A stretch of 28,645 bases of DNA from a virus, in IMG/VR virus record IMGVR_UViG_3300024259_000123, positions 1-28,645 of that record. One strand, given 5' to 3'. The position numbers and the translations under genes were made by a program. Position 1 is the first letter of the stretch. The number at the start of each line of letters is the position of its first letter. The notes beneath the pieces were generated by a model that was given only the letters and a program-made list of their open reading frames with translations, was not told the DNA's origin and ran no database searches. Below, in pieces: positions 24,479 to 25,495 of the stretch.

Positions 24479-25495
24479 ATGAGTAAACTATCAGCAGATG
24501 TTGTTGTAGACTGCCAAAGTGGCGACTGCGGCAAAGGAAAGGTTGTTCATTCGCTGGCGAAGAAGGGAAACTATACCCATGTCATGCGATTCAGTGGAGG
24601 CTCCAACGCAGGCCACACAATCTACCACGAAGGGAAGAAATTTGTCACCCACCTGGTGCCAGCCGGTGTGTTCCGCGGGCTGAAATCGATTATTGGTCGA
24701 GGCTGTGTTGTCGACACCAAAAAGCTGATGAATGAAATATCTGAGCTTGCGGCTGCTGGAATTGAGATGGTTGATCTTCTCCGTGTATCTGAAAAGGCAC
24801 ACTTGGTGACACCCGAACATGTCGAAGAGGAAGCAGGTGAATCCCGAATCGGTACGACCAAGACAGGGAATGGTCCTGCGTATCGTGATAAGGTCAGTCG
24901 TGTTGGCACATGTGCTGAGGAAGACTGGCGTCTCGGGCTTTACTTGATTGACGAATACAAGGAACTTCATACAAATGAGGCCGATGTCAATGTCCTAATG
25001 GAGGGAGCCCAAGGCTTCTATCTCGATGTCGACTGGGGAGACTATCCATACGTCACGTCTGCAACCTGCACCACCGCCGGAGCTGTCATGGCGGGCATCC
25101 CACCGCAGGCAATCAAGAAGGTGTACGGTGTGGCCAAGCCATACGAAACATACGTCGGTGCCAAGGCGTTTCAGGGTAAAGAGCCTGCGTTGTATGAACT
25201 GCAAAAGGTTGGCAACGAGTTTGGAGCTACTACGGGACGTCCACGACAGACAAATTGGCTGGACGTCGACAACCTTATCAAGGCAGTAAACGTAAATGGT
25301 GTCAACACGTTGATAATGAACAAAAGCGATGTCTTCGAGGAGGTCGGTGTCTTCAATCTTTACAAGGACGGGCAGCTCATTACTGTGATTAAGGAATTTC
25401 ACACTTTCAAGTTTATCGTTGGGGAGTTTTTGCGCCAATCATGCAGTCAGTCATTGAATGAGATCATTTGGTCGGCATCACCTTTGGAGATATAA
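24479..25495 (+). CDS. purA: short (archaeal-type) adenylosuccinate synthetase family protein: PurA-like, or possibly PurZ
   Basis: 338 aa. P-loop [13 protein letters not shown] ~ [38 protein letters not shown] ~ [35 protein letters not shown] and GATTGRPR match PurA motifs. Roughly 90 aa shorter than bacterial PurA. Confidence 0.7.
   Translation: [338 protein letters not shown]

Follow-up and report, generated by a model that had tools for sequence, protein, structure and literature searches.

The locus considered here raises the question whether a short phage-encoded member of the adenylosuccinate synthetase family forms adenylosuccinate from IMP, as PurA does, or is a PurZ/PurZ0, which condenses dGMP with aspartate toward 2-aminoadenine (dZ) and would make the phage one with a Z-genome, and what a GMP reductase-like gene does in its vicinity. 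The window, that is the whole stretch of 28,645 nucleotides of viral DNA that was analysed, had been described in an earlier note as carrying an archaeal-type enzyme, possibly PurZ, with PurA activity as the more conservative reading. The analysis points with good probability to a functional GTP-dependent, IMP-specific PurA of a phage-specific, minimised bacterial-type clade, likely acting in a shunt with a GMP reductase-like (GMPR-like) protein and the lyase PurB of the host. The argument draws on the following features of the window.

17652..18686, plus strand: IMPDH/GMPR-family (beta/alpha)8 enzyme, most likely GMP reductase (PF00478, flap alignment)
18831-19835, plus strand: NMNAT-Nudix fusion (Pfam NUDIX and CTP_transf_like; NCBIfam bifunctional NMN adenylyltransferase/Nudix)
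19832-21241, plus strand: NAMPT (Pfam NAMPT_N and NAPRTase)
23511..23573, plus strand: what is left of the original 5' end of purA, including an RBS of its own (alignment of 23480-23600, 24440-24560 and the L001 purA start; synteny)
23586..24470, plus strand: free-standing homing endonuclease (Pfam DUF7487, 5.2e-28; TnsA-like endonuclease N-terminal domain; PHROG families)
24479..25495, plus strand: predicted short phage adenylosuccinate synthetase, PurA type, 338 aa (ORF, PF00709, PDB, AlphaFold2, Foldseek)
26379..27011, plus strand: 5'(3')-deoxyribonucleotidase-like protein (PHROG phrog_2643, E=6.6e-17)

The short synthetase and its family

The open reading frame 24479-25495 on the plus strand encodes 338 aa, as previously noted; it starts with ATG, and an AAGGA ribosome-binding site lies in front of it. 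Judged by its sequence, the product is a PurA-family enzyme: Pfam PF00709 (Adenylsucc_synt) matches with E=2.9e-78 and a score of 263.9 bits (cutoff 27), values which exclude a chance match. In a phmmer search of the PDB the best relatives are bacterial PurAs (4.8e-54 to 1e-50), followed by Pyrococcus horikoshii PurA (3e-35) and PurZ/PurZ0 (5e-20 to 4e-16), and the NCBIfam models score 267 bits for bacterial PurA (NF002223), 172 for archaeal-type PurA (NF003295) and 135 for PurZ (NF038379). All PurA equivalog cutoffs are missed (267 of 402 bits for NF002223, 241 of 396 for TIGR00184, 172 of 368 for NF003295), because approximately 90 residues are missing and the alignment is broken into two parts, each of high score. 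The AlphaFold2 model (pLDDT 89.1, pTM 0.89) finds PurA structures as top Foldseek matches (TM 0.80-0.83), with P. horikoshii PurA and then PurZ behind them. LR756501, an uncultured megaphage of 735 kb, carries the best-matching PurA among sequenced phage records, with 40% identity, and INPHARED contained no near-identical phage genome for the window. The PHROG assignment is phrog_1211, labelled '2-aminooxy adenylosuccinate synthetase', a family which pools PurA and PurZ.

In a neighbour-joining tree with 200 bootstraps the short PurAs are monophyletic (100%), and by this placement the 338-aa protein is a member of a clade of proteins of approximately 330-345 aa from uncultured phages. The same tree, which is unrooted and represents the archaeal side by one sequence, P. 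horikoshii, reconstructed from PDB alignments, separates PurZ, PurZ0 and P. horikoshii from the short family, bacterial PurA and megaphage PurA with 100% support. The bacterial PurAs of Escherichia coli (1ADE/1CG0), Helicobacter pylori (9F17) and Yersinia pestis (3HID), the best sequence, HMM and structure matches, share with the short PurA the catalytic and ligand-binding residues and the side of this split, but they are approximately 90 residues longer and possess Glu14, Trp11, Asp21 and Arg304, while the short PurA constitutes a virus-only clade of its own. Absent with respect to E. coli PurA are residues 117-122, ~152-194, ~349-393 and the last 11 residues. The megaphage LR756501 PurA, equally phage-encoded, of bacterial type and equipped with Asp13, K331 and D333, has 399 aa and the same two segments partly shortened (E. 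coli 159-179 and 385-392 are missing), but clusters with the cellular PurAs, to which it is 51% identical compared with 40% to the short family.

The archaeal enzyme of P. horikoshii (PH0438, 2D7U/5K7X; NF003295) resembles the short PurA in its 339-340 aa, in its co-linearity over residues 8-289, in Asp13 and in the use of GTP and IMP, 5K7X being the GTP/IMP/hadacidin complex, and the two peripheral segments missing from the short PurA, in this comparison E. coli 152-194 and ~340-393, are missing from it too, as they are from PurZ. The earlier statement that 338 aa is nearer to archaeal PurA and PurZ (343-365 aa) than to bacterial PurA (432 aa in E. coli) therefore holds with respect to length. 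In similarity, however, P. horikoshii PurA falls behind (125 bits versus 187 for bacterial PurA; the short clade is 33% identical to it and ~38% to cellular PurA), it reads TMLD versus NKxD and GTVTGRRRR versus GATTGRPRQ, and it groups with PurZ/PurZ0. An archaeal origin was accordingly rejected, as sequence scores and tree favour the bacterial type and only length and architecture are shared. The occurrence of the same deletions in P. horikoshii and PurZ could, on the unrooted tree, equally be a shared ancestral state.

An exhaustive search of representatives recovered a continuum of intermediate lengths, situated on short contigs, and in a neighbour-joining tree built without bootstraps these forms branch between the long bacterial PurAs and the short clade. 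Because of this position, stepwise reduction from a bacterial-type ancestor, and not archaeal ancestry, is favoured as the probable origin of the short form. A scan of GTDB for cellular short forms used family-specific motifs, by which archaeal GTVTGR-type PurAs are not retrievable, and among the matches listed returned only one (L012, 50% identity), which nests within the viral clade in the tree and probably represents a viral contig binned by mistake. With ~335 aa and an intact predicted active site, the short clade provides a naturally minimised PurA that would help to define the dispensable parts of bacterial PurA.

Active-site residues and the Z-genome question

Residues were tabulated at 15 functional positions (E. 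coli numbering) over the 120 closest relatives. D13, K16, N38, H41, T129, R143, Q224 and V273 are invariant (120/120), and so are T300, T301, R303, R305, K331, D333 and S414, while at the IMP-site position T239 the query and 104 relatives have Thr and the other 16 relatives Ser. In the latter, Asp16 corresponds to Asp13, His46 to His41, NKSD 281-284 to T330-D333 and Ser332 to Ser414; the catalytic Asp16 and His46 occur together with Lys19 and Asn43 in the GDxGKGK P-loop and the NAGHT motif. The aspartate loop GATTGRPR at residues 249-256 corresponds to E. coli 298-305, with its G, T, T, G, R and R unchanged throughout the 120 relatives, and the guanine-specificity site is equally kept, as N, K and D of NKxD and Ser414 are found in all of them. 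We infer that IMP would be the specific substrate of the short PurA.

Residues 13-21 form the P-loop, Q-S-G-D-C-G-K-G-K, in agreement with the earlier note, and deviate within the motif by Cys in place of Glu14. Among the 120 closest relatives this position is Cys in 70, Thr in 43 and Ser in 1, thus replaced in 114, while Glu14 is conserved in cellular PurA and mostly retained in the wider short clade. Glu14 contributes to catalysis according to E. coli mutagenesis, and the kinetics of the short PurA may differ because of its replacement by Cys, Thr or Ser; a literature search returned nothing usable on Glu14 mutagenesis. Further substitutions of the query with respect to E. coli are Trp11 to Ser, Asp21 to His and Arg304 to Pro, and the clade-specific changes near the active site comprise Glu14 to Cys/Thr, Trp11 to Tyr/Ala/Ser, Asp21 to His and Arg304 to Pro. 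Such clade-specific changes close to the active site, in a protein below all equivalog cutoffs, might indicate an altered specificity, for example for dIMP or a modified purine, or an attenuated rate; this is most improbable, as all known contact residues for IMP, aspartate, Mg-GTP and the guanine base are invariant, the retention of Glu14 in most of the wider short clade speaks for sub-clade drift to Cys/Thr and not for a defining switch, and the Ser at position 11 of the window is tied to a homing-endonuclease insertion.

More consequential is the reading as PurZ/PurZ0. PurZ, a dGMP/ATP succino-amino-deoxyadenylate synthase, and the dGMP/GTP form PurZ0 (phiVC8 6FM1, S-2L 7ODX, Archimedes 7VF6) are equally phage-encoded, of PF00709 fold and of similar length, and require host PurB for the next step; the missing two segments match them as well as archaeal PurA, Thr14, found in 43 of the 120 relatives, also occurs in phiVC8 PurZ, position 11 is not Trp, and the phrog_1211 label itself points to PurZ, though the family is a mixed one. 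The residues which distinguish the two enzymes nevertheless argue for PurA. Position 13 is Asp in the query and in 120/120 relatives, but Ser in all six PurZ/PurZ0 references; Asp13 is conserved in 99% of the PurA clade and Ser is found in 147/147 phage PurZ/PurZ0 (PMC12884076), a replacement taken here as the PurZ rule (PMC12884076; PMC8515928; bioRxiv 10.1101/2025.10.22.683976). All six references possess TTVT where the query has GATT, and K331 and D333 are both missing at their aligned positions, the partial Archimedes sequence being not alignable there. R303, kept here, touches the 2'-oxygen of IMP in PurA (PMC8342488), whereas Ser13, TTVT and a Lys or displaced Arg at 303 are found in PurZ/PurZ0 (PMC8342488; PMC12884076). 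In PurZ, S14D abolishes selectivity and F295 and Y298 stack on adenine (bioRxiv 10.1101/2025.10.22.683976); this F-x-N-Y arrangement is absent from the short PurA, and in place of the TTVT tip loop and F295/N297/Y298 the query shows GATT and NKSD.

Model, tree and gene context point the same way. The PurZ model NF038379 stays at 135 bits against a cutoff of 300, and the 100% bootstrap split sets the family apart from the PurZ/PurZ0 clade. Genuine PurZ loci carry Z-cluster genes adjacent to purZ (DatZ, MazZ/DUF550, DpoZ or DutZ-DmtZ), neighbours which the short PurA does not have. In the window of 28.6 kb, with the rest of the genome lying outside, no DatZ, DUF550/MazZ, DpoZ/Pol I or DmtZ-DutZ was detected, and the previously noted absence of datZ, mazZ and dpoZ is borne out by a Pfam scan of open reading frames of at least 80 aa and by tblastn, in which the window yielded no match at E<=0.01 to any of ten Z-cluster proteins taken from four Z-phages. 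Among 87 related viral loci, none encodes DatZ or Pol I at a distance of up to 10 kb from purA; 18 related loci have a dUTPase, a 154-aa PF00692 protein of the ordinary kind without an NDT-like domain. In an independent experiment on aquatic phage contigs with canonical dA DNA, 14 of 17 PF00709 proteins were reported to cluster with E. coli PurA (bioRxiv 10.1101/2025.10.22.683976). The residues, the HMM score, the tree and the gene context thus led to the rejection of PurZ or PurZ0 as its identity, and a Z-genome is scarcely credible for this phage. The designations 'archaeal-type' and 'possibly PurZ' give way to a bacterial type, to which the sequence, the HMM scores, the structure ranking and the tree all point, with Asp and not Ser at position 13, a guanine-specific NKxD and no Z-cluster partners found. 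The earlier note had also stated that clustering with canonical PurA and conserved IMP-specific residues, together with ordinary adenine in virion DNA, would speak against PurZ, and the sequence half of this statement agrees with what was found.

With respect to annotation, PHROG labels and annotation pipelines pool phage PF00709 proteins as '2-aminooxy adenylosuccinate synthetase'. The existence of a large aquatic short-PurA clade means that short length alone must not be taken as PurZ or as a Z-genome, while PurA and PurZ are cleanly told apart by position 13, Asp or Ser, and by the NKxD site.

The GMP reductase-like partner and the proposed shunt

The product of 17652-18686, previously called GuaC-like, does belong to the IMPDH/GMPR family (PF00478, E=1.5e-84) and possesses GMPR architecture, but its overall similarity is nearer to IMPDH. 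The open reading frame list starts it at TTG 17586, whereas the ATG at 17652 agrees with the orthologue of 343 aa that the related contig L001 carries. The catalytic Cys loop is GIGGGSVCTTR, a CBS subdomain is absent, and the flap is short: in the GuaB/GuaC alignment a 10-residue gap as in E. coli GuaC removes SSDRYF, so that the Arg-Tyr dyad of IMPDH is lost, a gap that 16 viral homologues share with the window protein. Each NCBIfam model for GMP reductase matches in one co-linear stretch (NF003470, 179.5 bits, cutoff 397; NF003966, 171.2 bits, cutoff 344), while the IMPDH model scores higher, 223 bits in two stretches, and likewise below its cutoff; the best PDB matches are CBS-deleted IMPDHs with 222 bits versus 134 for classical GMPR. 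Despite these scores the IMPDH reading was set aside, as the Arg-Tyr flap and CBS are missing, and on architecture alone the protein is most likely a GMP reductase, the activity which we infer for it. GMPR/GuaB-like proteins of large or jumbo phages (Xanthomonas phage XacN1, Stenotrophomonas phage RAS14, Caulobacter phage Cr30, Bacillus phage G and Microcystis phage Mel-JY01), annotated as GMP reductase or dehydrogenase, are likewise CBS-less and 30-36% identical to the window protein. In searches of phage records a purA partner was not seen for these phage genes, the purA and GMPR match lists overlapping only in mislabelled bacterial contigs, and the literature search found no biochemical characterisation of the five proteins.

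In 18 of 69 dereplicated viral lineages the short purA has a GuaC-like gene nearby, on the same strand in all 18 and at a distance of at most 2 kb in 11 of them, compared with a background of at most 75 in 50,697 phage records (Fisher p=1.5e-34). This recurrence, the invariant residues and the architecture of the partner strengthen the conservative reading of the earlier note, a PurA with a GMP reductase in a G-to-A shunt. Since, on the other hand, about three quarters of the lineages (~74%) show no GMPR-like gene in the fetched flank, the PurA clearly also functions without it. In the window 5.8 kb separate the two genes and, unlike in the common arrangement, the GMPR-like gene is located upstream of purA, with the NAD+ salvage pair (18831..21241, plus strand) in between. 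This pair, syntenic in L001, is regarded as context, outside the purine shunt itself. PurB was found neither in the window nor in the 87 related loci, and for this reason the host lyase would be needed. Recurrent neighbours of the short purA are general replication and nucleotide genes, a DnaE-type polymerase and dUTPase. Downstream of purA, the product of 26379..27011, a further nucleotide-pool gene, has no Pfam or NCBIfam match. The GC content is 46.5% for the window and 29-46.5% for the related loci. The literature search found no description of a phage PurA/GuaC pair or of its auxiliary metabolic route.

The short PurA would catalyse the reaction IMP + L-aspartate + GTP -> adenylosuccinate + GDP + Pi. 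Asp16 (E. coli Asp13) is expected to take the proton from N1 of IMP, whereupon the GDxGKGK P-loop and His46 would hold the gamma-phosphate of GTP for its transfer to O6, giving 6-phosphoryl-IMP, from which aspartate, held by the GATTGRxR loop, would displace the phosphate. Because Arg141 is kept, the equivalent of E. coli Arg143, which is contributed by the partner subunit, the enzyme presumably works as a dimer, and the missing peripheral segments and the 6-residue loop piece would leave the active site untouched. During infection the GMPR-like protein may convert GMP and NADPH to IMP and NH3, and host PurB would complete the shunt GMP -> IMP -> adenylosuccinate -> AMP. Guanine nucleotides and IMP might thereby be moved into the adenylate pool in favour of an A+T-leaning phage genome and of ATP and NAD+ supply, a direction and purpose of flux that are proposed here from the gene content. 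The pairing in the clade suggests that phages use PurA and a GMPR-like enzyme to turn guanine into adenine nucleotides, and the recurrence of the co-directional pair suggests that many uncultured phages rebalance purines from G to A via host PurB.

The linkage data bear on two further explanations. The PurA could be a stand-alone booster of the AMP branch point, fed by IMP that the host makes de novo or salvages, and raising or deregulating adenylate synthesis, e.g. by escape from PurA expression control or feedback, for ATP, dATP and the NAD+ salvage enzymes, with the GMPR-like gene loosely associated. The lineages without such a gene in the fetched flank, the NAMPT and NMNAT-Nudix genes that separate the two in the window and the general nature of the other recurrent neighbours fit this view, which we consider rather unlikely, as the GMPR-like enrichment is very strong, strictly co-directional and often within less than 2 kb, and as the fully conserved GTP site gives no evidence from sequence of an escape from guanine-nucleotide-type inhibitors; it also overlaps with the shunt instead of excluding it. 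The combination of NAMPT and NMNAT-Nudix is a phage NAD+ reconstitution route, and purA stands in one co-directional block with this pair, a block that contains two Nudix proteins, so that PurA acting together with Nudix hydrolases and NAD+ salvage could rebuild AMP from IMP after host defences have deaminated or destroyed adenine nucleotides or depleted NAD+. Such a counter-defence repair is very unlikely, since NAMPT/NMNAT accompany the short purA in just 2 of 87 loci, an association specific to this phage lineage, and PADLOC returned nothing for PurA or the GMPR-like protein, a result upon which a defence-system reading was dropped.

The preferred reading, a PurA in a shunt with the GMPR-like protein and host PurB, has a more speculative extension, to which we give a small chance: that the short PurA was kinetically or regulatorily rewired by loss of segments and Glu14 to Cys/Thr and forms with the co-transcribed GMPR-like protein a dedicated 'G-to-A converter', coupled here to NAD+ reconstitution. 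If true, this would mirror, among purines, the dCMP-deaminase/thymidylate-synthase C-to-T route, and the NAD+ coupling in the lineage of the window would keep up adenylate and NAD pools against host shut-down or defence.

A homing endonuclease gene at the purA P-loop site

The free-standing homing endonuclease gene 23586..24470 is inserted at the P-loop-coding site of purA. The relative L001, which is 85% identical, lacks it, and none of the 87 related loci carries a homologue. Upstream of it, the purA remnant 23511..23573 encodes MLTADIVVDCQYGDCG, ends within the P-loop codons and continues with a short out-of-context tail and a stop. The unusual P-loop Ser at position 11 coincides with the insertion site. 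At this site the purA alleles are CAATACGGCGATTGTGGTAAAGG versus the recoded CAAAGTGGCGACTGCGGCAAAGG.

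Identity of the short phage PurA

The window is a phage fragment of tightly packed, co-directional open reading frames, to which no near-identical genome was present among 50,697 phage records. The features relevant to purine metabolism, and their surroundings, are:

17652-18686, + strand: GMP reductase-like (GMPR-like) gene, 344 aa, PF00478 match at E = 1.5e-84
23511-23558, + strand: remnant of an old purA 5' end with ribosome-binding site; 16 codons encoding MLTADIVVDCQYGDCG, stopping inside the P-loop codons
23586-24470, + strand: homing-endonuclease gene, DUF7487/TnsA-like, directly upstream of purA
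24479-25495, + strand: short purA, ATG start, 338 residues, AAGGA ribosome-binding site ahead
Further content: two RNA-ligase-family genes, an NMNAT-Nudix fusion, NAMPT, a second homing-endonuclease-like gene, a protein resembling 5'(3')-deoxyribonucleotidase, a MutT-like Nudix protein, three tRNAs and a tmRNA

The two enzymes singled out in the earlier note are both recovered, the PurA-like frame as an adenylosuccinate synthetase (PF00709, E = 2.9e-78) with the P-loop Q-S-G-D-C-G-K-G-K, and the second gene, through its PF00478 match, as a member of the IMPDH/GMPR family. A related 53.6-kb metagenomic contig (L001) encodes a PurA 85% identical to the query and shares the gene order of the window from RNA ligase to purA and further, the GMPR-like gene, NMNAT-Nudix and NAMPT included; the homing-endonuclease gene upstream of purA is absent from it.

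The earlier note had also considered PurZ, which together with PurZ0 represents the phage enzymes of 2-aminoadenine (dZ) synthesis. Within the PurA clade Asp13 (E. coli PurA numbering) is 99% conserved, and 147/147 phage PurZ/PurZ0 have Ser in its place (PMC12884076; also PMC8515928), while reversion of this Ser to Asp abolishes PurZ selectivity (bioRxiv 10.1101/2025.10.22.683976). Arg303 of PurA contacts the 2'-oxygen of IMP, its PurZ counterpart is displaced, and a tip loop, T273-T276, is PurZ-specific (PMC8342488); in phiVC8 PurZ, F295 and Y298 stack on the adenine of ATP (bioRxiv 10.1101/2025.10.22.683976). Aligned with E. coli PurA, phiVC8 PurZ, an Arthrobacter-phage PurZ0 and the 120 nearest relatives in the database, the query carries Asp at position 13, His41, GATTGRPR (T300, T301, R303, R305), NKSD (K331, D333) and Ser414. 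Fifteen functional positions (D13, K16, N38, H41, T129, R143, Q224, V273, T300, T301, R303, R305, K331, D333 and S414) are invariant in all 120 relatives; Ser13 and TTVT are found in six of six PurZ/PurZ0 references. A Glu14 to Cys/Thr change in the P-loop is specific to the clade.

Below all NCBIfam equivalog cutoffs, the query scores 267 bits against bacterial PurA, 172 against archaeal-type PurA and 135 against PurZ (cutoff 300), and a PDB sequence search returns bacterial PurAs at about 1e-54, Pyrococcus horikoshii PurA at 3e-35 and PurZ/PurZ0 at 1e-16 to 1e-20. The same ranking is obtained when a confident AlphaFold2 model (pLDDT 89.1, pTM 0.89) is compared by Foldseek, with TM scores of 0.80-0.83 for PurA, 0.75 for P. 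horikoshii PurA and 0.71-0.75 for PurZ at 22-24% identity. A neighbour-joining tree (200 bootstraps) included P. horikoshii PurA residues 5-330 and part of the Archimedes PurZ0, both recovered from printed PDB alignments, together with 27 PurAs of cellular origin taken from GTDB loci and a further four PurZ/PurZ0 genes of phages. Members of the short family form a single clade (100%), a split with 100% support separates PurZ, PurZ0 and P. horikoshii from the family, bacterial PurA and megaphage PurA, and the bacterial PurA group stands apart from the short family at 91.5%. The query thus clusters with PurA and apart from PurZ/PurZ0, against the PurZ option.

With respect to gene context, Pol I (DpoZ) and DatZ, DUF550/MazZ or DutZ-DmtZ adjoin purZ at genuine PurZ loci. 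As the earlier note had seen for datZ and mazZ, such partners are missing from the window: Pfam scans of frames of at least 80 aa found no HD or MazG domain, and ten Z-cluster proteins gave no match at E<=0.01. In 87 related viral loci, neither DatZ nor Pol I gave a match in the 10 kb around purA. In a metaGPA study of aquatic phage contigs, PF00709 proteins on ordinary-dA contigs group with E. coli PurA (14/17) and those on dZ contigs with PurZ (28/29) (bioRxiv 10.1101/2025.10.22.683976). Residues, HMM scores, Foldseek, tree and gene context together exclude a PurZ identity as far as sequence can exclude it, and the 24479-25495 product is a real, intact PurA, of predicted canonical chemistry, from a virus-specific minimised clade.

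A homing endonuclease at the P-loop codons

The endonuclease gene sits exactly at the P-loop-coding region of purA. The intact downstream purA has a differing N-terminus (MSKLS...) and a recoded P-loop, CAA AGT GGC GAC TGC GGC versus CAA TAC GGC GAT TGT GGT, which replaces Tyr by Ser and alters three further codons synonymously; Ser is found here in just 2 of the 120 relatives. On the simplest reading, the conserved P-loop codons were the homing target of the endonuclease, and the downstream purA looks like a co-converted, cleavage-resistant allele. Because of this homing into the P-loop site and the recoded allele, the unusual serine would reflect mobile-element history and not substrate specificity. 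Homing endonucleases have a second hot spot directly before an RNA ligase gene: there the window has a NUMOD3-type gene (15976-16701, - strand) and L001 at the equivalent place an HNH gene (2514-2996).

Distribution and origin of the short family

Many family proteins of 329-346 aa with 50-85% identity to the query occur in a large protein collection, and IMG/VR holds at least 570 confirmed relatives. The contigs that carry them, up to 284 kb long, look viral: sheath protein, ThyX and T4-type RNA ligase occur alongside runs of short frames without annotation. Among the GTDB species genome matches listed, the sole short PurA (50% identity) is on a 98.7-kb contig of a 'bacterium' MAG (L012, JAUSGQ010000020.1), the others being full-length PurA (~420-430 aa) of at most 41% identity. 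As it is nested within the short viral clade in the tree, this contig is probably phage DNA binned into a MAG. One large related phage contig (L007) has T4-type RNA ligase and ThyX near its short purA and a ribosomal protein L7/L12 homologue (PF00542, 9413-9778) two genes upstream.

Compared with E. coli PurA, the family is without residues 117-122, ~152-194, ~349-393 and the last 11 at the C-terminus. P. horikoshii PurA and PurZ lack the two large segments as well, so that on an unrooted tree the common short architecture could be a shared primitive state. On the other hand, when 1.84 billion cluster representatives were searched exhaustively with a profile (2,497 at E<=1e-30), a length continuum emerged, with 19-81 residues in the 145-215 segment and 33-105 in the 336-412 segment, and in a tree without bootstraps the forms of intermediate length branch off between the long PurAs of bacteria and the short clade. 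One intermediate is the 399-aa PurA of a 735-kb megaphage, and three others are on short phage-like contigs. Asp13 is retained in all but one of 132 representatives, the exception (P0248) having Glu at that alignment column. The continuum and the position of the intermediates therefore favour the view that viruses shortened a bacterial-type PurA step by step, on an unbootstrapped tree with minimal archaeal sampling.

The GMPR-like partner and a possible G-to-A shunt

The partner protein scores higher as IMPDH than as GMP reductase (223 versus 180 bits in NCBIfam, 222 versus 134 bits in PDB; all below cutoff). Despite these scores its predicted architecture matches a GMP reductase: it has no CBS subdomain, the catalytic loop GIGGGSVCTTR is present, and the flap has a 10-residue deletion in the same place as E. 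coli GuaC, with loss of the SSDRYF motif and its Arg-Tyr dyad, which IMPDH needs to hydrolyse the covalent intermediate. Sixteen viral homologues share this architecture in CBS, loop and flap.

Homologues of the partner are rare in phage records (75/50,697). INPHARED OR84xxxx entries ('Listeria phage LM 4-11-1', 'Staphylococcus phage SA 1306 Kay', 'Enterococcus phage Efs 1-1-1') and AFYI01/AGRM01 Salmonella contigs match PurA and GuaB/GuaC, many such 'phage' records evidently being bacterial chromosomal contigs with full-length host purA/guaB; the number of PurA or GMPR genes attributed to phages in that collection is therefore an upper bound. Against this upper-bound background, linkage to short purA is strong (Fisher p=1.5e-34), a GMPR-like gene being nearby at 21 of 87 loci, or in 18 of 69 lineages after dereplication at 95% purA identity; all 18 have it on the purA strand, 16 have it downstream, and in 11 the distance is at most 2 kb. 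In three quarters of the lineages it is absent from the available purA flank, and the window has 5.8 kb between the two genes, which stand in the rarer order. A contig of the window's exact length (28,645 bp) but from a different phage (L150, IMGVR_UViG_3300025687_000227; 67-82% identity to the window in short patches only) also carries both.

In the proposed shunt, the GMPR-like enzyme would convert GMP to IMP, the short PurA would form adenylosuccinate from IMP, aspartate and GTP, and host PurB would release AMP; no PurB homologue was found in the window or the 87 related loci. The related loci have a GC content of 29-46.5%, and the need for A therefore exceeds that for G. Such a pair would parallel, for purines, the dCMP-deaminase/thymidylate-synthase route familiar in phages. 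We infer substrates and direction of flux here, alongside the observed family membership, residue conservation and linkage. The G-to-A module put forward in the earlier note is supported in its conventional PurA form by the recurrent pairing, the GMP-reductase architecture and the PurA-type residues, and the PurZ variant falls away. Such a shunt is plausible.

A predicted two-gene NAD+ salvage/reconstitution pair, an NMNAT-Nudix fusion overlapping NAMPT by 4 bases (18831-21241, + strand), lies in the interval from the GMPR-like gene to purA and accompanies short purA at only 2 of 87 related loci. The RNA-ligase-family genes (PF09414) are at 3825-4484 and 16745-17650 (both + strand), and 66-977 has a weak PARP-catalytic-domain match (9.7e-5, below cutoff). 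The 870-aa product of 8015-10627 (+ strand), with a Major Vault Protein shoulder domain (PF11978, 4.6e-21) and a Vault_3 repeat (1.2e-8), is a predicted MVP-like protein in a phage; in L001 a TROVE (Ro60/TEP1-like) and VWA gene, absent from the window, directly follows purA (11406-12746). The tRNAs (Gly-GCC, Arg-TCG, Thr-GGT) cluster at 7657-7886 (+ strand). The tmRNA (27089-27448, + strand; Rfam RF00023, 92 bits, E=8e-35; ARAGORN tag peptide ANDNSEYSYAQAA) lies in a region 87% conserved in L001 and overlaps the GTG start called mechanically for the Nudix frame 27390-27878, the true start of which is probably further downstream.
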